Assembly: GCA_016180065.1 (NCBI GenBank)
Contig: JACPBY010000006.1
Coordinates: 3,233-67,232 of the forward strand
From: Candidatus Woesearchaeota archaeon
GTDB taxonomy: Archaea > Nanobdellota > Nanobdellia > Woesearchaeales > UBA10216
Length of the DNA: 64,000 nt
Reading direction: 5' to 3'
This document shows, in pieces, positions 1,701 to 58,409 of the stretch. The notes beneath the pieces are model-generated. The model saw only the letters and a list, made by a program, of their open reading frames with translations, was not told the DNA's origin and did not search any database. The position numbers and the translations under genes are program-made. Each line of letters opens with the position of its first letter. Positions within the stretch are counted from its first letter, which is position 1.

Positions 1701-1835
1701 TCAACAACCTAACCACAGCAAGCTGCGGGGTATGTAATTCGTTGGGTTCAGGAGAACCAGCAGGTTCTCCGTGCTCAGAACCGCTGCGGTTCTGACAGTT
1801 GGTTCTTCACAAATCGGGATGCGCCCATTGAAGAA
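1701..1835 (+). repeat. structured repeat family, copy 1 (full length, with the 49-nt double-hairpin module at 1749..1797)
   Basis: Near-identical to 26710..26839 and 46319..46416, and to 42949..43060 in reverse complement. Begins TCAACAACC, ends CATTGAAGAA. Confidence 0.85.
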
Positions 1836-6394: not shown

Positions 6395-7315
6395 CTACAG
6401 GGCAAGCACCAGATACGGCCCCACAAGGCAAAAAACCCTGTTGGTAACATCAATGGAATGATGTATGAGCCAGTAATCGGCGTAAGTCAGCTTTTTCTTA
6501 AACAGGTCATGTGCGCGGTCAATTATCTTATTGCGGTCGTTCTTTAAGGCAACAACCTTTCTTGCGTCAAACTTGTAAAATATTTCGTAATAAGACCTGA
6601 CCATCCGGCTTGAGGATGCAAACAAGTCAACAACCTCCTTGTTAAGCTTGACATTGGCAGAGTTCAGATTGGCAAAATGATGGCAGATGTACTTGAACTG
6701 GTCAGCAATGTGCTCCAGTTCCTCGACTATGTAATAAATTGGGCCCAGCTTGTTAAAATTGAAGGCACTATTCTTTTTATTTAAGGCTCGCCTGCAGATG
6801 ACAGTAAAGCGGTTATTCGCTTCTTCCAAAAACGCAACGTTCTTCAGGTGCGCATAGTTTCCCTCCTTAAAAGCCGAAACCGCATCTTCAGCCATGTTAA
6901 CCAGAAGCAGGAATATTCTTCGCAAAAGCGAATCAAACTCCTCAATAACGCCGGAAACATATTTAACTATGCAATAATTCTGCCCCTGCTCAAGAACCTC
7001 AAACCCTACCGCCTCCTTCGAAATTGCTTCCTGAACTACTGCTGCCATTGCAGGCTCATTAAAAGTTACTTTCAGCTCATCAACCCCTCTTTTGTAAAGA
7101 GAACGAATAGCCCGGGGGGTCATATCTGCCAAATCGCTGATGTTGATTTCAGCCTTCTCAACTGTTGGGGCATTGTTGACATGAATTACAACCTTGTCCC
7201 CATCCTCCTGCACGTCAAGCTCGGCACCTTTTTGCACATTATGGGCCTGGGCCCACTTTCTTGGCAGGGAAATAAGCTGCGTTGAGCCGGCAATCTGAAT
7301 TACTTTTCGCTTCAT
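6395..7315 (-). CDS. AbrB/SpoVT-domain plus PhoU-like phosphate uptake regulator homolog
   Basis: The N-terminus KVIQIAGSTQLISLPRKWAQAHNVQKGAELDV is an AbrB-type swapped hairpin. The C-terminal helical repeats are typical of archaeal PhoU-like proteins. A G-rich SD-like run lies upstream. Confidence 0.8.
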   Translation of the reverse strand: MKRKVIQIAGSTQLISLPRKWAQAHNVQKGAELDVQEDGDKVVIHVNNAPTVEKAEINISDLADMTPRAIRSLYKRGVDELKVTFNEPAMAAVVQEAISKEAVGFEVLEQGQNYCIVKYVSGVIEEFDSLLRRIFLLLVNMAEDAVSAFKEGNYAHLKNVAFLEEANNRFTVICRRALNKKNSAFNFNKLGPIYYIVEELEHIADQFKYICHHFANLNSANVKLNKEVVDLFASSSRMVRSYYEIFYKFDARKVVALKNDRNKIIDRAHDLFKKKLTYADYWLIHHSIDVTNRVFCLVGPYLVLAL

Positions 7316-22599: not shown

Positions 22600-23214
22600 A
22601 TGCTTACAAAAGAACAGTTAAACATCCTTTCCGTATTCAAGAAGGACATTTTTGCAAACTTGACTTTCAAGCAAATCAAAAAGGGAAGCGGGCAAAAGTC
22701 AAACAACATAGTGCAAATAGCGCTGAAGGAATTCCATAAGCAAGGCATAGTCAAAACAAAAAAAACAGGAGATGTAACCACCTACTGCCTGAACCTCAAC
22801 AATAATCTGGCTTTTTCCTACCTCAACATTGTAAACGAAGCCGAAATCAGCAAGATCGGAATGCCTAAAAGCATTCTATACGACATCAAGAGCAGGATAT
22901 TCAAATATACCGAATTCTTCATTTTAATCCTGTTTGGCAGCCATGCAAAAGGAAAGGCGACCCAAAAATCAGACTTAGATGTTGCAGTAATTGTGGAATC
23001 AGAGCAGACGAAAAAAGAAATCACCCCCTATCTGGAAACAATAAAAAGAAGGGAAGTCATTGCAATAGACTACCACATATTCGCAAGAACCGAATTTTTA
23101 GACATGCTAAAGGCAGATACGGAGAATGTTGGAAAACAGATATTTAAAAGCGGCATTGTTTATCACGGATACATCGCCTATTGCAATCTCATAAGTGAAA
23201 GAAAAAATGAATGA
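22600..23214 (+). CDS. minimal nucleotidyltransferase (MNT) with N-terminal wHTH-like region
   Basis: Contains LFGSHAKGKATQKSDLDVAVIV (the GSxxxG..SDxD motif). The ATG at 22600 (MLTKEQL) is preferred over the listed GTG at 22543. Confidence 0.8.
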   Translation: MLTKEQLNILSVFKKDIFANLTFKQIKKGSGQKSNNIVQIALKEFHKQGIVKTKKTGDVTTYCLNLNNNLAFSYLNIVNEAEISKIGMPKSILYDIKSRIFKYTEFFILILFGSHAKGKATQKSDLDVAVIVESEQTKKEITPYLETIKRREVIAIDYHIFARTEFLDMLKADTENVGKQIFKSGIVYHGYIAYCNLISERKNE

Positions 23215-23716
23215 CGAAACAGAGCTATATCTCCAAAGGGCGGAAAACGAGCTGGTTGCCGCACAATTGCTATTTGACGTTTCGAGCAACCCAACCCTCC
23301 AGAAAGAGCAGTTCAAGTTGGAAAAAGACTTTACATTTTACAGTTCTGTAATCAGCCACTCTTATTACTGCATCTTTTATTCTGCAAAAGCTATATTAAT
23401 CAGGAATGGCATAAAAACAGAAGCTCCGGAAGTTCATAGAAAAACACTCGAAGCATTTGAAACAAGCCTTGTCAGGACTGGGAAGCCCGATGTTGAATTA
23501 TTGAAGATATACCGAAAAATCATTGTCAGGGCAGAGGAGCTGCTGGGCATCTTCTCGAAAGAGAAAGGAAAGAGAGGGCAATTCACCTATCAAAAACTGC
23601 CACAAGCGAACATGGAGCCAGCCAAAGAATCGCTTGATAACGCTTCTTTCTTTTTCAAGAACATTAACCAGATAGCAAGAACGCAGCTCACTCAGAGTCG
23701 TAATCCACAAGGCTGA
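23207..23716 (+). CDS. HEPN-domain protein, partner of the MNT
   Basis: LQRAENELVAAQLLFD..SHSYYCIFYSAKAILIRNGI is typical of HEPN proteins. Its start overlaps the MNT stop (ATGAATGA). Confidence 0.8.
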   Translation: MNDETELYLQRAENELVAAQLLFDVSSNPTLQKEQFKLEKDFTFYSSVISHSYYCIFYSAKAILIRNGIKTEAPEVHRKTLEAFETSLVRTGKPDVELLKIYRKIIVRAEELLGIFSKEKGKRGQFTYQKLPQANMEPAKESLDNASFFFKNINQIARTQLTQSRNPQG

Positions 23717-26530: not shown

Positions 26531-26709
26531 TGCCGAAACGCCTCATGGGTCCATGAAGCAGCCTCAAAAGTATAACCCGCCCTTGCCTGAAAGTATAGCT
26601 TTCCTCATGCCAAAGCCTTCCAAGGCAAGATTAAAATCAAAACTGCCTGCTGCCACGCCAAGACTTATTTTTCATCAAAAACTTCCTTTACTGAAAATTG
26701 AACTTTAAA

Positions 26710-26839
26710 TCAACAACCCAACCACAGCAAGCTGCGGGGTATGTAATTCGTTGGGTTCAGGAGAACCCGCAGGTTCTTCGTGCTCAGAACCGCTGCGGTT
26801 CTGACAGTTGGTTCTTCACAAATCGCGCCCATTGAAGAA
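26710..26839 (+). repeat. structured repeat family, copy 2 (49-nt module at 26758..26806)
   Basis: About 95 percent or more identical by eye to copy 1, with a 5-nt deletion in the 3' module. Confidence 0.85.
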
Positions 26840-27020
26840 ATCTTCTAACGCTAACGTCGTAACCGATGCTCTTCAATTCAGCCATAACTTTTTTTTGGTG
26901 TTCGGTCAATTCAGAGCCATTAGCCTTAACCTCAATGAAGGTCGGTTTACTCGTCAGGCCATTCATGCACATAAGGTCTGGATGCCCTCCATCAAAGCTG
27001 GAAAGGACATTTAGTCCAGT
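26784..27020 (-). pseudogene. VRR-NUC-like nuclease remnant, N-terminally truncated
   Basis: GGHPDLMCMNGL..TFIEVKANGSELTEHQKKVMAELKSIGYDV matches the D..ExK..Q VRR-NUC core. The frame opens right after a TAG at 27021-27023, with no start before the motif. The last 9 codons come from the repeat. Confidence 0.5.
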
Positions 27021-30531: not shown

Positions 30532-30658
30532 TAGCCCCGCCCGGATTCGAACCAGGGTTTGCAGGGTTCTCCATGCGGATTTCTTGGTTGAGCTTCTTTG
30601 CAGCGCCAAAGAAGGTCATGCCAGAGCCTGCCGTGCTTGACCGCTACACTACGGGGCT
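30532..30658 (-). tRNA. tRNA-Gln (anticodon CUG) with a 54-nt intron at the canonical 37/38 position
   Basis: Hand-folded. Acceptor AGCCCCG/CGGGGCT, D-arm GTGT/GCAC, anticodon stem GCAGG/CCTGC, loop CTCTGG..C, T-arm CCTGG-TTCGAAT-CCGGG. A bulge-helix-bulge can be drawn (CUCU/GGAG helix, bulges GGC and AAC). Confidence 0.85.
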
Positions 30659-35632: not shown

Positions 35633-36274
35633 ATGAAGCTGTTATCAATAGGTGCGGAAGCGACAGTTTACGCCAATGATAAAATCAAGGCTGTAGTAAA
35701 GCAGCGCCAGCCGAAGGGCTACAGGGCGAAAGAGCTTGACGACAGGCTGCGGCTGTCCAGGATGCGAAGAGAAGTAAAAGTTATTGAGGCGCTTCAGCAG
35801 CTTGAAATCCCAGTTCCAAAGCTGATTGGCTCTGATGAGAAGACAGCAGCGATAACGATGCAGCTCATTGAAGGAAGGAAAGCAAGGGATGTTTTAAGCG
35901 GCGACAACTACCGTGGCATCTGCAGCGAAATCGGAAAATCAATTGGCTTAATGCACAAAAACAACATGATTCATGGAGACCTGACCACTTCCAACATGAT
36001 TATTGGAAACAACAAGAGAGTTCACTTCATAGACTTCGGGCTGAGCCTGTTCAGCAACAAGGACGAGGACAAGGCAGTTGACTTGCACCTGTTCAGGCAG
36101 GCCCTGAACAGCAGCCACAGCAGGATTGCTGAAAAATGCTTTGATGCTGCAATAGCGGCTTACAAAAAAGCCAACAGCAGTGGCTGGAAAGCAGTGCTGA
36201 ACAGGCTTGAAAGGGTAAAAGGAAGGGGAAGGAACAAGGGAAAGAACAAGCCTGACCGAGCGGAAAGCAGGTAA
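35633..36274 (+). CDS. bud32: Kae1-associated kinase Bud32 (KEOPS subunit), stand-alone
   Basis: Contains GAEATVY, HGDLTTSNMI, IDFGLS. About 210 aa with an atypical small kinase fold. An A/T box lies 24 nt upstream. Confidence 0.88.
   Translation: MKLLSIGAEATVYANDKIKAVVKQRQPKGYRAKELDDRLRLSRMRREVKVIEALQQLEIPVPKLIGSDEKTAAITMQLIEGRKARDVLSGDNYRGICSEIGKSIGLMHKNNMIHGDLTTSNMIIGNNKRVHFIDFGLSLFSNKDEDKAVDLHLFRQALNSSHSRIAEKCFDAAIAAYKKANSSGWKAVLNRLERVKGRGRNKGKNKPDRAESR
36170..36239. repeat. direct repeat A (inside the bud32 3' end)
   Basis: 69 of 70 nt identical to 37595..37664. Confidence 0.9.
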
Positions 36275-36282
36275 AGATTAAT

Positions 36283-37506
36283 CTATTCGAGAAGCCATTT
36301 CCAGACGGGCTTGATTATTATCTTTTTTCCCTCAATCGCAAATTCATCATCCTGATTATAAGTTAAAATAAGCCCGTCTTTTAAGCTAAACAGTTTTAGG
36401 GCAGTAAGCAAGCCGTTTATTTCCCTGCCCTTAGTCTCTTCATTAAAATCAGAGCAGACTTGAATTGCGGCAGTTACCCTGCCTTTTTCCTTAATCACAA
36501 AATCGCATTCATTCTTCTCCCTGAAATAAAAAATGTCCCTGAATTTCCTTCTCAAACCCAAAAAAACAGTGTTTTCAAGCATTTTCCCAACATCTTTAGA
36601 GAAAGAGGCGGAATTATTGCAGGAAAGCCCGTTGTCTACGGAATAAGCCTTTTTGGGATTTACCTGCTGCTTCTTGTATGAATAGCTAAAACGGGGCACT
36701 GTAAAGAGCAGATAAGCGTTTTCGAAGTAAGAAACATAATCAATAACACTCTGGACAGACTTAATCTCAAACATTTTCTTAATCGAATTGTATGAGAACT
36801 CCTTTCCAACATTGCTAATCAAAAAAATGGCAATTTTAGTCAGGATATTTGTGTTTTTAATGCCAAACCTTATCGCGATATCCTTCATAACAATATCTGA
36901 AAGCAATTCATGAAGAATCGAAGGATTTGCCTTTTTAAGATACTCCGGAAACCCTCCCCCGTAAAGGTATCCCTCAAAGGACTCAATTGAGGGATTTTCC
37001 TTATTCAGGTTGAGAAATTCCCTGAATGAAAATGGAAACATCTCCATCTGGAGATGCCGCCCAGTCAGCTTTGTGCCAAGCTCCCCGCTTAAAAGCGATG
37101 CGTTAGAGCCAGTTATGACAATCCTCTCTTTTTTGTCAATCAGGTACCTGATGAATTTTTCCCACTTGCCTATGTTTTGTATCTCATCAAAAAAATATGT
37201 GCCGCCTTCCCCAAAAAGCTCCTTCATTATAGCTTCAGCCTTATTAAAGTCAGAAAGCTCAAACCCATCTAAACGCGGGTCTTCCAAATTCAGGTAGTGC
37301 CAGTTTTTCTGTTTTCTTAATAACTGGTTGAGGAACGTGCTTTTCCCGCACCTTCTTACCCCTGTGATTATAAGGGCAAAAGAGTCTTCTATCCTTAGCT
37401 CCCCTTCTTTTTCCCTCGGAGTTCCAGGGTCCAGCTTAGCTAAGGACTCTTTTTGGGAAACTATAACCTCCCTCAATGTTTCCTTGGTTATCATGATGCA
37501 GGCCAT
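36283..37506 (-). CDS. AAA+ ATPase of the COG1373 / DUF4143 type
   Basis: Walker A ITGVRRCGKST, Walker B-like TYFFDEIQ, and a C-terminal DUF4143-like region ending with a restriction-endonuclease-like ECDFVI. Confidence 0.85.
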   Translation of the reverse strand: MACIMITKETLREVIVSQKESLAKLDPGTPREKEGELRIEDSFALIITGVRRCGKSTFLNQLLRKQKNWHYLNLEDPRLDGFELSDFNKAEAIMKELFGEGGTYFFDEIQNIGKWEKFIRYLIDKKERIVITGSNASLLSGELGTKLTGRHLQMEMFPFSFREFLNLNKENPSIESFEGYLYGGGFPEYLKKANPSILHELLSDIVMKDIAIRFGIKNTNILTKIAIFLISNVGKEFSYNSIKKMFEIKSVQSVIDYVSYFENAYLLFTVPRFSYSYKKQQVNPKKAYSVDNGLSCNNSASFSKDVGKMLENTVFLGLRRKFRDIFYFREKNECDFVIKEKGRVTAAIQVCSDFNEETKGREINGLLTALKLFSLKDGLILTYNQDDEFAIEGKKIIIKPVWKWLLE

Positions 37507-37594: not shown

Positions 37595-37664
37595 CCAACA
37601 GCAGTGGCTGGAAAGCAGTGCTGAACAGGCTTGAAAGGGTAAAAGGAAGGTGAAGGAACAAGGG
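37595..37664. repeat. direct repeat B (copy of the bud32 3' end)
   Basis: The single G-to-T mismatch relative to copy A creates a TGA in the bud32 reading frame (..LERVKGR*). Confidence 0.9.
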
Positions 37665-37714
37665 GAAAAATCCAAAGCAGAAAATATATAAACGCCTAGG
37701 CGTAATCCTGCGTT

Positions 37715-42682: not shown

Positions 42683-42948
42683 TCAAATCACCCCTCCAAC
42701 TCAAAATTTAAGCCGTAAATCGCTGCTGCGGCCATAGCTGTAGCTGCCATACCTGCTGCAACTGTTTTTTCTGACATCTTTCCTATCATGTGACTCATTT
42801 TTTCCGCTGGCTTAAAGCCAGTAAACGAAGAATCTAGCTCAGGTTCTTCTTATCTCACAGCAACAGAGAACAGCACGGCACTATTTAAAGGTTTCTACGT
42901 GCCGACATTGTCAAGTTAAGTGGGAATGCAGGTCGTGGTCTTGCAGAC

Positions 42949-43060
42949 TTCTTCAATGGGCGCTTACCCCGCCCCTATGGGGCGATATGATTTCCCATTG
43001 AAGAACCAACAACCCAATGAATTACATACACCCCACAGCTTGCTGTGGTTGGGTTGTTGA
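42949..43060 (-). repeat. structured repeat family, copy 3 (reverse orientation, lacks the 49-nt module, longer 3' hairpin)
   Basis: The reverse complement reads TCAACAACCCAACCACAGCAAGCTGTGGGG..CATTGGGTTGTTGGTTCTTCAATGGG..CGCCCCATAGGGGCG..CCCATTGAAGAA. Confidence 0.8.
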
Positions 43061-43170
43061 CTTTGCCAGCCTCCCTGCGGTAAGCGAAGGGAGGACTAGC
43101 AAACCGCAGCGATAGCAGCGGCACAACCGGCTTCCGGCACACAAAACTTGACTTCATCTTATGAGCCAGG

Positions 43171-45866: not shown

Positions 45867-45977
45867 CGCCGGGAGCGGGACAGTCATCCTGCCCAGGCAG
45901 GATTTTGAACCCGCAGGACTGTGTGTGCAGTCACTCGCTTCTGAAGCGAGCGCGTTACCAGATTACGCTATCCCGGC
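45867..45977 (-). tRNA. tRNA-Leu (anticodon CAG) with long variable arm and an apparent 23-nt insertion in the T-loop
   Basis: Hand-folded. Acceptor GCCGGGA/TCCCGGC, D-arm GCGT/ACGC, anticodon arm CTCGC-TTCAGAA-GCGAG, variable arm GACTG-CACACA-CAGTC. The T-stem GCGGG/CCCGC encloses 30 nt (TTCAAA + ATCCTGCCTGGGCAGGATGACTG + T). Confidence 0.7.
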
Positions 45978-46197
45978 GTGCTTTCAAAACTGCCTCTGAG
46001 TATTATTATGGCTTTCTGTGATTTTTCCGTAAATCTTGCGGCAACAACGGACAATTTATGTCTTTACACGGAATTCTTTCGCGAAATCAGGAAATTTGTA
46101 AAATATTTCCGGAATTGTTGAATTATTTGCGGCATGTTTTTAGCAAAGTTTATTAAGGAGTTCACTCTAACAACACTCAGATTGTTGTGTGCAGTTT

Positions 46198-46231: not shown

Positions 46232-46318
46232 TCCGTTATTTTTTATTGCTCCAGAATATCCGAGTTATAAAGAATCCTATCAGAGGCCGTATGGACGATT
46301 ACGATGTCAATCCCGCAA

Positions 46319-46416
46319 TCAACAACCCAACCACAGCAAGCTGCGGGGTATGTAATTCGTTGGGTTCAGGAGAACCAGCAGGTTCTTCGTGCTCAGAACC
46401 GCTGCGGTTCTGACAG
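46319..46416 (+). repeat. structured repeat family, copy 4 (3'-truncated right after the 49-nt module at 46367..46415)
   Basis: Identical to copy 2 apart from about 1 nt. Overlaps the last 8 codons of the minus-strand gene 46393..47982. Confidence 0.8.
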
Positions 46417-47982
46417 CTGCCTGCGCTTCTCCTCGATAATGCGCCTGATTCTTGCTTCGACCTCTGCATCGCTGGGCTGAGAGGAGGATTGAGAAACTGC
46501 CGCTTTATCGCCGCTGCTGCCACCGCTAACACCGCTGCCAAAATTTTCTTCCCTGCTGCTTTTTACAGAACCGCCGCCTTCTTTGCTGCCTGTGCCGCCT
46601 TTCCCCCTGTTTTTCACAAAGAAGAATGCAAGCACCGCCACCATGGCAAACAAAAGCACAGGCGCAAACCTTGCCTGAACCTTTCCAGTGCCAGAGGCTG
46701 TAAGCTTGACGGCCCTGCCGGTTATGCCCACAAAGTCCGATGCCTTCTTAAGCAGCGGCCTTTCATCCTCCAGAAAAGCGTTCTCAACAGGAGAAGAGCC
46801 TGCAATTGTAGGGAAGCTGATGTTGTAGCTGCCTTCTGAAACTTTATCTGTAAGGTCTACCTCAAACGCCTCCCCGGGAGCAAGCTCAACATCATGGGCA
46901 ATAACGTAGCTCTTCCTTCCAGCCAGGGTTATGTTAAATTTCCTTGCGTAGTTCACGTTGCCGGTGTTCCTGAGAACAACGCTCCTGTTGGTAAAGCTCA
47001 CAGCCGCCTCTTCAACGCGCTCAACCACAAGCTGGCTCGCAGCGCTCAGGCCAAAGGCAAAAGAAGCCAATGCATATGTGCCGGGCTTCTGTCCTGCGGG
47101 AAACACCAGGGTGATGTTTTCACCTGTCCTGTTTGAAGCAGAGAGGACAACAGAGCCTGCCGAATCGGTAACCGAAATGTCAACAGATGATTCCATCATG
47201 TCATCCGCCTGGTCATAAACAGAAACCGCAACAGCAAAAGGCTCAGAAGGCTTGATATTCTGGCTGCTCACCGCATTAACTATCCTGGTGGGAACAGCCT
47301 CAACCTCAAACTGCGCAGAGGCTGAGCCGGAGTTGCCGTAAGAGTCATTCACGGCAAATTCCAGGCCATGCAGCCCTGATTTTATGTTTCCTGGCAGCCT
47401 TATGCTGTATGCAAAAGAATTATTATCAACAGATGCTGCGTAGGCTGTGCCGAGGAAGGCCATGGAAACAGCTGCAGGCAAAAAGTGGCTCTTGCCAACC
47501 GCACCAAAAGCTTCAACAGTTTCAGAGGGCAGGTATTTAAGCTTGCCAACCTCAACAGCAACTGACAAAAGGCGGGTGACGTTAAAAACATCCGAGGCTG
47601 CAGTTTCATTCACAGACAAGTCATAAGCTGTTGCATTGGCTGCAACAAAACATCTTCCAAGCATGATTGGGGAAATGCTCAGCCCGGGCACGTCAACCTG
47701 CTGCTTCTCACCCGCGAACAGGTTTGTCGGCAGAGTGTAGAAATCAAGCACAAAGCCTGTGCAGTAAAGCGAAAGCTTTACCAGGCCATTGAAGTCCTGA
47801 TCCCCTGAAAGCCCGTAGCTTGCAACAATCCCGTCCCCGAAATTGTATACTTCCTTGTCAGCCTTTACCGCAAGGTCTGCAGCAGCCGGAAGAGCAAGCA
47901 GGGACAGCCCCGCTACGAGAAAAGCAAACAAAACAGGGAAATGCCCCGCACCACTGCACCTTTTTTTCCCCATTTTAAGCAA
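46393..47982 (-). CDS. surface-anchored protein (signal peptide plus C-terminal TM anchor)
   Basis: N-terminal FPVLFAFLVAGLSLLALPAAA, beta-rich body, C-terminal FAPVLLFAMVAVLAFFFV, then a G/S/K-rich cytoplasmic tail. Confidence 0.7.
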   Translation of the reverse strand: MLKMGKKRCSGAGHFPVLFAFLVAGLSLLALPAAADLAVKADKEVYNFGDGIVASYGLSGDQDFNGLVKLSLYCTGFVLDFYTLPTNLFAGEKQQVDVPGLSISPIMLGRCFVAANATAYDLSVNETAASDVFNVTRLLSVAVEVGKLKYLPSETVEAFGAVGKSHFLPAAVSMAFLGTAYAASVDNNSFAYSIRLPGNIKSGLHGLEFAVNDSYGNSGSASAQFEVEAVPTRIVNAVSSQNIKPSEPFAVAVSVYDQADDMMESSVDISVTDSAGSVVLSASNRTGENITLVFPAGQKPGTYALASFAFGLSAASQLVVERVEEAAVSFTNRSVVLRNTGNVNYARKFNITLAGRKSYVIAHDVELAPGEAFEVDLTDKVSEGSYNISFPTIAGSSPVENAFLEDERPLLKKASDFVGITGRAVKLTASGTGKVQARFAPVLLFAMVAVLAFFFVKNRGKGGTGSKEGGGSVKSSREENFGSGVSGGSSGDKAAVSQSSSQPSDAEVEARIRRIIEEKRRQLSEPQRF

Positions 47983-49086: not shown

Positions 49087-49953
49087 ATGGAAATAGAAGT
49101 AAAGAAGAACAATAAAATGGAAATGAACAAAATTTATTGCATGGACTGCATTGAAGGCATGAGAAGATTTGTGCCGGATAAATCTGTAGATATCGTAGTA
49201 ACCTCTCCGCCTTACAACATTTGAGTAAAATATAACTCCCATGAAGATAGCATGCCTTTTGACGAATATCTTGATTGGATGGAAGAAGTAGCAAAGGAAT
49301 GTTTCAGAGTTTTGAAAGATGATGGCTCATTTTTCTTCAACATCGGAGATAAACCTTCCGATGAATTAAGGTCTTTAAGAGTAGCTGAACGAATCAACAA
49401 AATATTCAGATTACAGAATACCCTGCATTGGGTTAAATCAATAGCTGCTCCGGAAGAAGATGTTAATATTGGGCATTACAAGCCTGTCAACAGCGACAGG
49501 TTCTTAAATAATTGCCACGAATACATTTTCCACTTTACAAAGCAGGGCGATGTTGAATTAGATAAATTAAGCATTGGAGTTCCATATCAGGATAAATCAA
49601 ACATTGGAAGATGGGAAAAAGCCAAACAAGACCTCAGGGATAGAGGAAATAATTGGTTTATTCCTTATGAAACTGTGCAAAGCCAAAAAGTCCATCCTGC
49701 CATGTTCCCAACAAAATTGCCGGAAATGTGCATAAAGCTACATGGATTGCAAAAAGGAAAACTCGTTGTTTTGGACCCGTTTGCCGGTTCAGGCTCTACT
49801 GCTATTGCCGCCAAAAAATTAGGCTGCTACTATGTGTGCTTTGAGAAAGATTTGGAATATTGCAGAATAGCTGAAGGATTACTAAACGAAGCCATGAGCG
49901 AACAAGAAGCCAATAGGCTAATCAAACCTCTTTACAGCTTTGGCATATCCTGA
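49087..49953 (+). pseudogene. N4/N6 DNA methyltransferase (beta class) with an in-frame TGA at 49222..49224
   Basis: Motif [10 protein letters not shown] is followed by a stop, then the same frame continues [18 protein letters not shown]..., with motif [15 protein letters not shown] in the 49252..49953 part. Confidence 0.8.
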
Positions 49954-55766: not shown

Positions 55767-56492
55767 ATGGCTTTGGTTGAAATTTTGCCTGGCATAGAAA
55801 TAGCAGACTTGGCGCTTTACCTCAAGAAGGAGCGCATCCTCGTTATTGGCGATGTCCACTTGGGCTTTGAGGAGGCTATGGCAAGGCAGGGCGTTTTCCT
55901 GCCAAGGTTCCAGTTTAAAGACACAATTGACAGGTTAGGGAAAATTTTCCCGCTGCTGCAACAAAAACTGGAAGCAATAGTCATAAACGGCGACCTGAAG
56001 CATGAGTTTGCCTCAATTTCCAGCCAGGAATGGCGTGAAATCCTGAAATTCTTTGACTTCCTGCTGCGGCATTCCAAGCAGATAATCATCGTTAAAGGCA
56101 ACCACGACGTTAAGCTCTCGCCCATAGCCAGGAAGAGAAATATTGCTGTTGTGGAAAATATTGCGGCCAATGACAAGTTCATCTGCCACGGGCACATTGT
56201 TCCCGGCAGCAGCGAGTTCGAAAAGTCAAAAATCGTGATTGTCGGCAACGAGCACCCTGCCGTTTCACTGAGGGAAGGCGCAAGGTCTGAGCTTTACAAG
56301 TGCTTTCTTGTCGGCAAATGGCAGGATAAAAAAATGGTCGTCATGCCCTCTTTCAACCAGGTCACAATCGGCTCAGACATCCTCAAGGAGAAGTTTATCA
56401 GCCCATTCATGCGGCAGGACCTGGGCAGGTTTGAGGTTTTCGTGGCTGGCGACAAGGTCTACCCATTTGGCAAAGTAAGAAGCCTTGCATAA
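55767..56492 (+). CDS. calcineurin-like metallophosphoesterase (archaeal SbcD/Mre11-related small type)
   Basis: Contains VIGDVHLG, INGDLKH, VKGNHD, CHGH, GNEHP. Confidence 0.85.
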   Translation: MALVEILPGIEIADLALYLKKERILVIGDVHLGFEEAMARQGVFLPRFQFKDTIDRLGKIFPLLQQKLEAIVINGDLKHEFASISSQEWREILKFFDFLLRHSKQIIIVKGNHDVKLSPIARKRNIAVVENIAANDKFICHGHIVPGSSEFEKSKIVIVGNEHPAVSLREGARSELYKCFLVGKWQDKKMVVMPSFNQVTIGSDILKEKFISPFMRQDLGRFEVFVAGDKVYPFGKVRSLA

Positions 56493-56519
56493 ATGAATTA
56501 AATGGTTTGCATGGCAATC

Positions 56520-57086
56520 CTAAGCCATCTTCTTGAGTATGTCCGCCTTCGTTATCACGCCTTCCGGCTTGCCGTTTTCCGCAACGATGACTATTGGCGA
56601 GTGCCTCAGGAGCTCTGTTATTGCCGCGGCTGGCGTTGTTTTTGCCACAACGGGAGGGGCTTCCTCCATGATGTCTTTTGTGCGCAGCCTTTCCGGATTT
56701 TTTCCCTCGGCCAGCTGTTCTATTATCGTTGTTTCAGAAACCATCCCAACTACTGCCCCGCCCTCAACTATTGGCAGCTGTGATATGCTGTGCGCCTTCA
56801 TCTTCCTGACAACCTCTGCCACAGGCTCATTTTTGCCCGCCGAAACAATCCTGCCGGTCATGAGCTGCTGTGCCTTCAGCCCTTTTTCCCGCTCCAGCCC
56901 GTGAAGCACTTCAAGAATGCGCTTTACATGGCTGTATGTCGGGTCAACTGTTCCTGTTTCTATCTTTGCAATAAGGCTTTGGGACACTCCTGCCAGCTTT
57001 GCAAGCTGGGTTTGCGTCAGGCCGTGCTTCTTCCTCAGCAGCCTTGCTTCCTGAAGCTCCGGGCTTGCATTTGCGCCATGTATCAT
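56520..57086 (-). CDS. XRE-type HTH transcriptional regulator with a C-terminal CBS pair
   Basis: LRKKHGLTQTQLAKLAGVSQSLIAKIETG followed by two CBS-like segments. Confidence 0.85.
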   Translation of the reverse strand: MIHGANASPELQEARLLRKKHGLTQTQLAKLAGVSQSLIAKIETGTVDPTYSHVKRILEVLHGLEREKGLKAQQLMTGRIVSAGKNEPVAEVVRKMKAHSISQLPIVEGGAVVGMVSETTIIEQLAEGKNPERLRTKDIMEEAPPVVAKTTPAAAITELLRHSPIVIVAENGKPEGVITKADILKKMA

Positions 57087-57526
57087 TAGAAAAGCTCTTC
57101 TTCTCCCTTACCCACATCTTCAATGAGGTCCTGGGCTTTGCCTTCATACGCAACATTTACGGATTGCCTTCCGCAGTAGGGGCAGGAGCTGATTTCAACG
57201 TCCTTTTTTCTGGAGAACTTGAACCTGCACGCCCTGCAGTAGTAGTTTACCGTCCCGCTATCCGCAGTTGCTCTTAAGGCTGCTTCTTGGCCTTTGCTCT
57301 TGGCCATCATCTGCTCCTTCTGCAGCCTTAGCGCGCTTGGCTGCGTTGTGCCGGGCTTTATGCCGCTTCTTTCCTTATCTACGCAGTTTTGGCAGATAAG
57401 CTTCGAGCCTGCCAGGTTGTACCGCATTGCATTCATCTGCGTCCTTGTGCCGCAGTTTCCGCACGTCAGCATCCCGCTCAATGGCATGCCTTCATTGCCA
57501 TGCCTTGTATTTTTAAATTTTGTCAC
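57086..57526 (-). CDS. double zinc-ribbon protein
   Basis: CGNCG..CQNC and CRAC..CPYCG. Its stop overlaps the downstream HTH-CBS gene start. Confidence 0.6.
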   Translation of the reverse strand: MTKFKNTRHGNEGMPLSGMLTCGNCGTRTQMNAMRYNLAGSKLICQNCVDKERSGIKPGTTQPSALRLQKEQMMAKSKGQEAALRATADSGTVNYYCRACRFKFSRKKDVEISSCPYCGRQSVNVAYEGKAQDLIEDVGKGEEELF

Positions 57527-58145: not shown

Positions 58146-58409
58146 CTATTTTAGAATGCCAACCACAGCTACCGGGAACGGCTTTTTGCACAGGATGCCA
58201 AGCTCATCATTGGGCACGGCAATGTCCAGAATCTCACAGCCCTGTGCTTCACAGGCCTGCATTAATCCTGCCTTAACTTTCTCCATGCAGTTTGAAGCAA
58301 CAAAAACCCTCGCAAGCTTGCCAAGCTTGAGCAGCTTTACAGTTTCGTCAGTACCCAGGACAAGCTTTCCTCCCTGAACGCTCTTCCGCAATTCTGCCAA
58401 CGCTTCCAT
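58146..58409 (-). CDS. rpl30e: 50S ribosomal protein L30e (eL30)
   Basis: LRKSVQGGKLVLGTDETVKLLKLGKLARVFVASNC. The ATG at 58409 is preferred, because the listed start at 58430 reads through the 17-nt tandem repeat. Confidence 0.85.
   Translation of the reverse strand: MEALAELRKSVQGGKLVLGTDETVKLLKLGKLARVFVASNCMEKVKAGLMQACEAQGCEILDIAVPNDELGILCKKPFPVAVVGILK

Follow-up and report, generated by a model that had tools for sequence, protein, structure and literature searches.

A stretch of 64,000 nucleotides (nt) from a Candidatus Woesearchaeota archaeon (GenBank assembly GCA_016180065.1, contig JACPBY010000006.1, positions 3,233 to 67,232), referred to here as the window, contains four copies of a palindromic repeat, three of which are interrupted at one common site by a 49-nt module of two hairpins that the remaining copy lacks. 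The question raised by this locus is what the module represents. The earlier note on this DNA, made from the sequence alone, had described the presence/absence polymorphism and had suggested either tandem binding sites for a dimeric protein or a nested palindromic mini-element. The analysis reported here favours a restricted form of the latter: the module is, on balance, probably a nested self-folding double-hairpin insert that defines one subfamily of a small non-autonomous palindromic intergenic repeat found in Woesearchaeota and other DPANN archaea.

A search of the window with the 24-nt 5' part of the repeat, with shuffled sequence as control, gave four matches, at 1702, 26711 and 46320 on the forward strand and at 43036-43059 on the reverse strand (0 expected from shuffles). 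A profile search with the repeat core retrieved precisely these copies and nothing further; a weak profile match at 58151 lies inside a coding sequence and was dismissed as chance. The host repeat is 120-140 nt long and its 20-nt core, AACCACAGCAAGCTGYGGGG, occupies 1711-1730 (+), 26720-26739 (+), 46329-46348 (+) and 43031-43050 (-). Copy 1 (1700-1837, +) lies between the TATA box (1653-1660) and the start codon (1879) of metK. Its first helix, P1, has the 5' strand at 1702-1713 (+), followed by the core hairpin H1 at 1714-1727 (+), and a 3' strand split by the module (1741-1748 plus 1798-1801, +); a short second stem pairs 1803-1809 with 1829-1835 (+). Copy 2 (26708-26842, +) is 97% identical to copy 1 and has a second stem-loop shorter by 5 nt. 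Copy 3 (42946-43062, -) is without the module, and its P1 is uninterrupted. Copy 4 (46317-46416, +) consists of the 5' half and the module and ends at the module 3' end or one base beyond (GACAG|CTGCC); it is cut off at this edge and therefore has no 3' half at all. The ends of the repeat, ATCAACAACCC on the 5' side and CCCATTGAAGAAATC on the 3' side, are not reverse complements of each other; most copies have AATC(A) on either end, and copy 3 has AGTC there instead.

The module reads CAGGAGAACC[A/C]GCAGGTTCT[C/T]CGTGCTCAGAACCGCTGCGGTTCTGACA and was located by search at 1749-1797 (+), 26758-26806 and 46367-46415 in copies 1, 2 and 4 (0, 2 and 1 mismatches, respectively; 0 expected from shuffles), where the earlier note had placed it. 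It forms the hairpins GGAGAACC-N4-GGTTCTCC (M1, 1751-1770 in copy 1) and TCAGAACCG-CTG-CGGTTCTGA (M2, 1775-1795), and its DNA fold energy of -17.4 kcal/mol (z = -6.0) was matched by none of 200 shuffles. Thus the two hairpins anticipated from the sequence are borne out, with the correction that hairpin 1 of copies 2 and 4 contains a G.T pair. The additional GGTTCT expected directly 3' of the module is present at 1802-1807. Copy 3 reads CATTGGGTT|GTTGGTTCTTCA (GGGTT|GTTGG, junction 43011|43010), precisely the 49 nt being absent, and the junctions, read directly in the sequence, are unshiftable and without duplicated bases, as had been claimed. In the fold of the full element the two module hairpins branch from P1, which is split into 8 + 4 bp and is preserved. 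In copy 3 this helix is continuous, as foreseen, and consists of 11 pairs instead of the 12 perfect pairs proposed: its 3' strand begins with A in place of G, which leaves a C.A mismatch at the end of the helix.

A homologue of the module was found in locus L090 (loci fetched for comparison carry L numbers) of the Woesearchaeota assembly JACPCV01, with a genomic guanine-plus-cytosine (GC) content of 0.49. Its 5' junction, GTTGGGTT|CA, is identical. Hairpin 1 is AAGGAACC-ATAA-GGTTCCTT, so that the half-site has shifted from GGAGAACC to AAGGAACC with the other arm compensating: two pairs are changed on both sides and a third runs GC/GU/AU. All eight pairs of hairpin 1, and all 16 stem pairs of the module, are preserved, the arms of hairpin 2 being unchanged. 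These paired substitutions indicate that the double-hairpin fold of the module is maintained. The L090 element is located 3 nt 3' of a tRNA-Leu(CAG) gene in a region without synteny to the window, and therefore the module-bearing form has reached non-orthologous sites in two genomes. Within the window the module has been copied together with its carrier copies, which stand in unrelated contexts: a 5' leader (copy 1), a convergent intergenic region (copy 2) and a gene 3' end (copy 4). At the foot of hairpin 2, which forms its 3' edge, the module abuts three different sequences: GTTGGTTCTTCA (copies 1 and 2), GGGGTAAGGACCC (L090) and, in copy 4, coding sequence. The module is a discrete unit with fixed edges, under structural constraint.

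As a separate observation, a tRNA-Leu(CAG) gene occurs near a module-bearing copy in both genomes (L090, 1595-1681 and 1684-1810; window, 45889-45978 and 46317-46416). Copy 4 is about 340 nt from this gene, on its 5' side and in the opposite orientation, and the surrounding genes are not syntenic with those of L090.

Within the window the 49-mer and each of its single hairpins are confined to the three copies. Among 101 fetched loci, AGAACC-N3-6-GGTTCT was present in one, L090, and the pattern GTGCTCAGAACC-N4-5-GGTTCTGACA, which covers both module variants, gave 0 matches in viral contigs and Joint Genome Institute (JGI) metagenomes. A metagenome scan with the 5' arm of the subfamily returned two AT-rich one-hairpin forms and no more module carriers. 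Copy 1 as a whole had no match in plasmids or phages, and the 20-nt core had 0 matches in viral contigs. The module thus never occurs outside the repeat in the window, the 101 loci, the viral contigs or the JGI metagenomes, an outcome that the earlier note had named among its refutations and that speaks against an independent element. Of the nested mini-element suggested at the outset, the nesting, with fixed edges, compensated hairpins, a 3' edge that is a breakpoint in three contexts and analogous inserts elsewhere (see below), is retained, and the independence is not supported.

The host repeat was traced by an exact scan with the core, one genome per species, which retrieved 91 stretches from 42 species-level assemblies with a genome GC content of 0.30-0.50, about 35 of them archaeal and mostly DPANN. 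By database labels only, the archaeal carriers include 13 Woesearchaeota, 5 Pacearchaeota, 5 Nanoarchaeota/Nanoarchaeia and 1 Aenigmatarchaeota; further bins bear the labels Methanosarcinales, Methanosaeta, Methanoperedens and Thermoplasmata, and a small number are bacterial. Copy number in one genome of roughly 1 Mb is about 30 or more; the Woesearchaeota metagenome-assembled genome (MAG) PCYG01 has about 40 copies at 29 loci. In its scaffolds L010, L017, L024, L036, L046, L068, L077 and L087, runs of N interrupt many copies, often at the site of an optional insert.

All elements follow one grammar. The 5' part consists of AT[C/A/G]AA, an arm, CCC-AAC, the hairpin CACAGCAAGCTGTG, GGGGTAT and the return arm, and the 3' part of a second arm, a hairpin of the same type (e.g. 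CGCTGCAAGCAGCG), GGGGTATGAACCC, the return arm and AAT[C/A]AA, the core unit being AAC + CACAGCAAGCTGTG + GGGGTA with the hairpin apex GCAAGC. Minimum-energy folds gave two stem-loops for 20 of 20 representatives. The arms are lineage-specific yet complementary, both in P1 (CAACAACCC/GGGTTGTTG in the window, CAAACACCC/GGGTGTTTG in JACPBZ01 and CAAAAACCC/GGGTTTTTG in PCYG01) and in the second helix P2 (TTCTTCAATGGG/CCCATTGAAGAA, CCTTCATTGGG/CCCAATGAAG and CTCAAACTGGGT/ACCCAGTTTGAG). RNAalifold analysis of eight representatives recovered P1 with 13 pairs, two of them covarying, and a second hairpin with two covarying pairs. One-hairpin forms also occur and resemble deletions between two GGGGTATG repeats, tandem copies have one ATCAA in common, and the 3' signature follows the core at distances that fall into clusters of 29, 75-92 and 134-144 nt.

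The 3' strand of P1 is uninterrupted in every other lineage with the window arm type, and P1 is continuous in L042, L053, L073, L085, L058 and PCYG01. The module-free form is the family norm and is ancestral, and therefore copy 3 belongs to a separate subfamily and is not a deletion product. Copy 3 has a full-length second stem-loop, TTCTTCAATGGG...CCCATTGAAGAA, around a second core hairpin, CGCCCCATAGGGGCG + GGGTAAGCGCCC (42970-42984, -), which is without counterpart in copies 1 and 2; this stem-loop is longer by 35 nt, and the 5' half of copy 3 differs from the other copies by a 2-nt insertion and two substitutions. Because copy 3 keeps the second core hairpin and GGGTAAGCGCCC, whereas copies 1 and 2 have lost that hairpin and show further diagnostic differences, the polymorphism in the window lies between two repeat lineages. 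It is a difference between subfamilies, and not a recent change in a single copy, an on/off event at one locus or a regulatory switch.

Comparable inserts were found in other lineages. In PCYG01 an insert of 49 nt is present in 6-7 of about 40 copies, at one fixed site between GGGTTTTTG and GTGTTTGC, and is never solitary in 199 kb. In JAGVYH01 (L043) a single element contains a pair of inserts, 49 and 49-50 nt long, both of which follow a core hairpin and GGGGTA without a gap; one compensated pair distinguishes them, and neither is present in the sister element L016. Inserts of 58 nt occupy the junction between the two stem-loops in L025 and L074, and one of about 80 nt follows GGGGTA in L059 and is missing from L054. 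Inserts of these lineages start with CA[A/G] and have G[T/C][G/A]C between the hairpins, their sequences being otherwise unrelated, and the host helices are intact in every insert-bearing element folded. Double-hairpin inserts are a general option of the family, and it is their architecture that is conserved, not their sequence. As for their origin, local inverted duplication is one possibility, of which the recurrence of GGTTCT in M1, M2 and the host arm is suggestive in the window; the pattern is also suggestive in PCYG01, not in JAGVYH01. A length of 49 nt recurs in three lineages (L043, 6551-6599 and about 6679-6728; L071, 2054-2102; window, 1749-1797), in a common layout of a first hairpin of about 23-25 nt and a second of 24-26 nt with unrelated sequences.

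The repeat has been gained and lost between related genomes. The window is archaeal, encoding a proteasome alpha subunit, Lhr helicase, RNA polymerase A'' and an intron-bearing tRNA gene, and its closest proteins are those of Woesearchaeota MAGs (87-89% identity). No repeat copy was present in the 11-21 kb syntenic loci of the nearest relatives (proteasome-alpha 87-88% identity), nor in the orthologous metK leaders of L100 and L101. The window and two relatives have in common a block upstream of metK, TTATTCTTTT[T/A]GGAATAATT..TGTCAC..TTTATAAA; the metK start codon is located about 40-90 nt past this block in the relatives, and the window has roughly 180 extra nt including copy 1. The block, at 1621-1660 in the window, 3880-3930 in L100 and 3930-3975 in L101 (locus coordinates approximate, from the alignment), comprises in these three Woesearchaeota the palindrome TTATTCTTTT[T/A]GGAATAA, then TTTTGTCAC and then the TATA-like TTTATAAA, and from its sequence looks like the operator plus promoter of the S-adenosylmethionine (SAM) synthetase gene. 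To the left of copy 1, the flanking sequence GAAGAAACACATATCCACGG (1679-1698) is similar to GAAGAAATATACGG (1830-1843), which spans the element's 3' end and right flank; the left-hand sequence could be an older 3'-end remnant, a long degenerate duplication or a target resembling the element end.

Synteny is broken where copy 3 is located, between the genes for Lhr helicase and proteasome alpha. In the relatives these genes are separated by a block of genes (a metallophosphoesterase, an HTH-CBS protein, an open reading frame (ORF) of about 150 aa and others), and copy 3 stands at the new Lhr|proteasome junction, which is one junction of the rearrangement. The same block adjoins the proteasome gene in L092, L095 and L096 and is found at 55767-57526 of the window, about 13 kb away and inverted. 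Beside copy 3 (43066-43130) are the hairpins CCTCCC-TGCGGTAAGCGAA-GGGAGG and CCGCAGC-GATA-GCAGCGG, and also GCGGTAAGCG, which resembles the GGGGTAAGCG of the element; this region may be what is left of another copy, degenerate and oppositely oriented. Copy 4 replaced the 3' end of a gene, with the breakpoint at the module edge. The last 7 codons and the stop of ORF 46393-47982 (-) are supplied by the reverse strand of the module; the product aligns with its L096 orthologue to ...RIIEEKRRQ and then ends in LSEPQRF followed by the stop, the orthologue being about 30 residues longer.

How such a repeat spreads can be outlined tentatively. The sense strand folds better than the antisense strand in 22 of 27 distinct elements, with 62 versus 20 G.U pairs (Wilcoxon p = 0.002), a comparison to which one genome contributed many of the elements and on which 11 of 13 lineages agree. 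This asymmetry points to an active form that would be single-stranded, either single-stranded DNA (ssDNA) during replication or transposition or possibly RNA. A strand-specific, hairpin-recognising enzyme might move the repeat, HUH proteins being the most plausible partner class, of which none was found among the scanned window ORFs or beside copies. The double hairpins could have been added at hairpin-adjacent sites by the same machinery or by hairpin-driven template switching, and the feet of hairpins would then act as preferred breakpoints.

Several observations weigh against a nested insert in a mobile repeat. No transposase, HUH protein or integrase was identified by Pfam among 40 window ORFs, and no protein family recurs beside the copies in the 91 loci, where clustering of 368 ORFs within 1.5 kb of a copy gave only one group, of three AAA/DUF4143 members; the negative results for transposases and RAYT proteins cover the window ORFs and the loci beside copies. 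The distances from the core to the 3' signature disclosed no cargo-bearing autonomous form. No near-identical pair of sequences with and without the element was found, and movement was never directly observed. The ends are not terminal inverted repeats, and the short end repeat, AATC(A) or, in copy 3, AGTC, could be a target duplication or a target preference, as could the end motif shared by tandem copies in L076 and L079. The window module is without flanking duplication, whereas inserts of the other lineages are bordered on both sides by a repeated GTG or GTA (3 nt), and hence a single mechanism may not account for all of them. Only one further genome is known to contain a homologue of the module, so that the compensatory evidence rests on two lineages. 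Finally, the strand asymmetry is equally compatible with an RNA function.

This last point leads to the one serious rival, which is nevertheless rather unlikely: that the repeat is a structured non-coding RNA family or a cis-acting RNA element, in which the module would be an optional two-hairpin expansion at a multi-helix junction. The covarying arms and the G.U excess of the sense strand agree with it, as do the modules, which are always extra branches on intact host helices, the position of copy 1 in sense orientation within the predicted metK 5' leader, and the orientation of copy 3, the same as that of both flanking genes. Against it, orientation follows no strict rule: copies are on the same strand as the upstream gene in 30 cases and on the opposite strand in 22, and with respect to the downstream gene the numbers are 23 and 39, with a mild preference of copies for gene 3' ends. 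No promoter is conserved upstream of the copies, whose flanks are unrelated. Copies are truncated, fused, in tandem or overlapping gene ends, as is typical of selfish DNA, and, contrary to the overall bias, the core hairpin has its stable tetraloop, G(CUUG)C, on the antisense strand, to which, on inspection of the sequence, the G.U reading of a recurrent C variant also belongs. Rfam also gave no match to the repeat: at the gathering threshold only two tRNAs were reported in the window, and at E values up to 10 the matches were at chance level, all at most 17.5 bits against gathering scores of at least 42. A literature text search for the core string returned no paper, and general searches for DPANN repeats returned nothing specific.

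The remaining explanations are weak. The AGAACC/GGTTCT array might constitute tandem operators of a dimeric DNA-binding protein, the module placing neighbouring genes under a regulator, as the earlier note had proposed. Four to five half-sites spaced by roughly 24 nt, and the position of copy 1 between the metK promoter and start codon, would suit this proposal. It is improbable all the same, and not supported, for the motif occurs nowhere else in the window nor in 100 other loci, L090 being its sole other carrier, where the half-site in hairpin 1 is altered with compensation; the arms of equivalent modules in other lineages are unrelated in sequence, and the three module-bearing copies have no context in common.

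Even less likely is that copy 3 is a simple deletion derivative, produced by microhomology slippage, and that the polymorphism is without wider meaning, an outcome that the earlier note had named as its own refutation. The site is indeed flanked by direct repeats that are almost the same (GTTGGGTT and GTTGGTT), and deletions are favoured by hairpins. However, no microhomology is present at the junctions (GGGTT|CAGG and GACA|GTTGG), copy 3 departs from the other copies at several further positions and retains a second core hairpin, now missing from copies 1 and 2, and its module-free arrangement is the standard architecture throughout the family. Excision of the module from RNA as an archaeal intron, by the tRNA-splicing endonuclease, can practically be dismissed despite the exact presence/absence and the intron-containing tRNA gene of this organism (30532-30658), for GGGUU|CAGG and GACA|GUUGG are unable to form a bulge-helix-bulge motif on sequence inspection (on the upstream side UGGG, the four bases preceding the final two, is unpaired with the CUGA of the module end, and 3-nt bulges with a 4-bp spacing are absent) and the L043 inserts likewise lack one.

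A nested double-hairpin insert in a dispersed repeat can be set beside known systems. Correia elements (CREE/NEMIS) of Neisseria, BOX elements of Streptococcus pneumoniae and ERIC elements of enterobacteria are modular intergenic palindromic repeats without protein-coding capacity. They are often transcribed together with adjacent genes and have blocks that define size classes: about 50 bp in Correia, 45-nt boxB units in BOX and fixed-site inserts of about 70 bp in ERIC. The present repeat resembles them as a small, non-coding, structured and dispersed intergenic repeat in which a discrete internal block gives size classes. It differs in that it is archaeal (DPANN), has no sequence relationship with them, lacks the terminal inverted repeats of Correia elements, and carries an optional block of two hairpins kept by compensatory change. 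An identical core across phylum-level groups, as seen here, is not known from any of the three. 

For the insert itself the closest parallel is provided, alongside other repetitive hairpin-forming elements of organelles, by the double-hairpin elements (DHEs) of Allomyces mitochondria (Paquin et al. 2000), whose mobility, in the summary given in PMC2800124, was deduced from insertion patterns in related genomes. As outlined there, DHEs are also short two-hairpin units with exact-site presence/absence, no flanking duplication and no known moving enzyme; according to the same outline they are dispersed singly in intergenic regions, introns and genes, whereas the module is found only inside one host repeat. 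Genome type and sequences differ as well, and independent dispersal of the DHE kind was seen neither for the module or its single hairpins nor, in 199 kb, for the PCYG01 module.

With the REP/REPIN-RAYT system and the IS200/IS605-derived palindrome-associated elements (PATEs) the repeat has in common hairpins on one strand, a short end sequence (here AATCA) shared by tandem copies, a lack of terminal inverted repeats and a high copy number in a small genome. Two similar core hairpins on one strand, the G.T excess of the sense strand and AATCA at the ends might suggest a PATE. The two nested hairpin levels are a difference, as are the hairpin-to-end distances, which are unlike those of IS608; no Y1/HUH, RAYT or TnpA gene was found among the scanned window ORFs or beside copies in the 91 loci. 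Assignment to REP was rejected, the core (AAC + CACAGCAAGCTGTG + GGGGTA) having no GTAG-type head. Classification as a miniature inverted-repeat transposable element (MITE) was also rejected: the inverted repeats are internal, each stem-loop having its own arms, and no related autonomous insertion sequence with a transposase was found among the window ORFs or in the loci beside copies. A MITE survey (PMC11602168) places a 'Woesearchaea genome' among the densest archaea, with 105 MITEs per Mb, without a description of sequence, structure or subfamilies; these MITEs may be the same family. An integron attC site was considered as ACCCAAC and GTTGGGT fit RYYYAAC/GTTRRRY, but excision at G|TT would remove 56 nt, not 49, and no cassette ORFs or integrase were seen among the scanned window ORFs. 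Readings as H/ACA, C/D or K-turn RNA were rejected on inspection of the sequence. The nearest systems are Correia, BOX and ERIC for the size classes and DHEs for the insert, and the repeat is a member of none of these.

Other features of the window are recorded for completeness. ORF 36283-37506 (-) encodes an AAA_14/DUF4143 ATPase and is flanked by 76-nt direct repeats (36171-36246 and 37595-37670, 96% identity), the first of which is the 3' end of a RIO-type kinase gene (35633-36274). L096 is without the ATPase gene at this position, so the arrangement looks like a small site-specific insertion in which the target gene end was duplicated. ATPases of this type are also encoded near repeat copies in L029, L037 and L081. 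The tRNA gene at 30532-30658 (-) has a 57-nt intervening sequence and starts with A1-U72; it was detected by the Rfam tRNA model (48.7 bits) and missed by ARAGORN. A nucleotidyltransferase and HEPN gene pair, toxin-antitoxin-like, is located at 22600-23716, and a DNA N4/N6 methyltransferase gene at 49252-49953.

DPANN genomes are very small, and mobile DNA and non-coding RNA are little known in them. The 20-nt core is identical across MAGs of 30 to 50% GC, and this invariance suggests that some conserved partner exists, which could be a transposase, a nuclease or an RNA-binding protein. A far-reaching interpretation, offered tentatively and with low confidence, is that the repeat and its inserts constitute a previously undescribed class of archaeal hairpin-based mobile element, with a conserved single-strand-specific enzyme recognising the core across DPANN lineages and the double hairpins as a second, parasitic layer inserted site-specifically beside the cores (as in L043), or else a new structured RNA family with mobile expansion hairpins. 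On the practical side, the repeat and its variants break or confuse short-read MAG assembly and are usable as lineage markers. The optional double hairpins are natural variants with which recognition by the partner could be tested, and in the window itself the repeat is found at a synteny break, in the leader of the SAM synthetase gene and at the end of a truncated gene.

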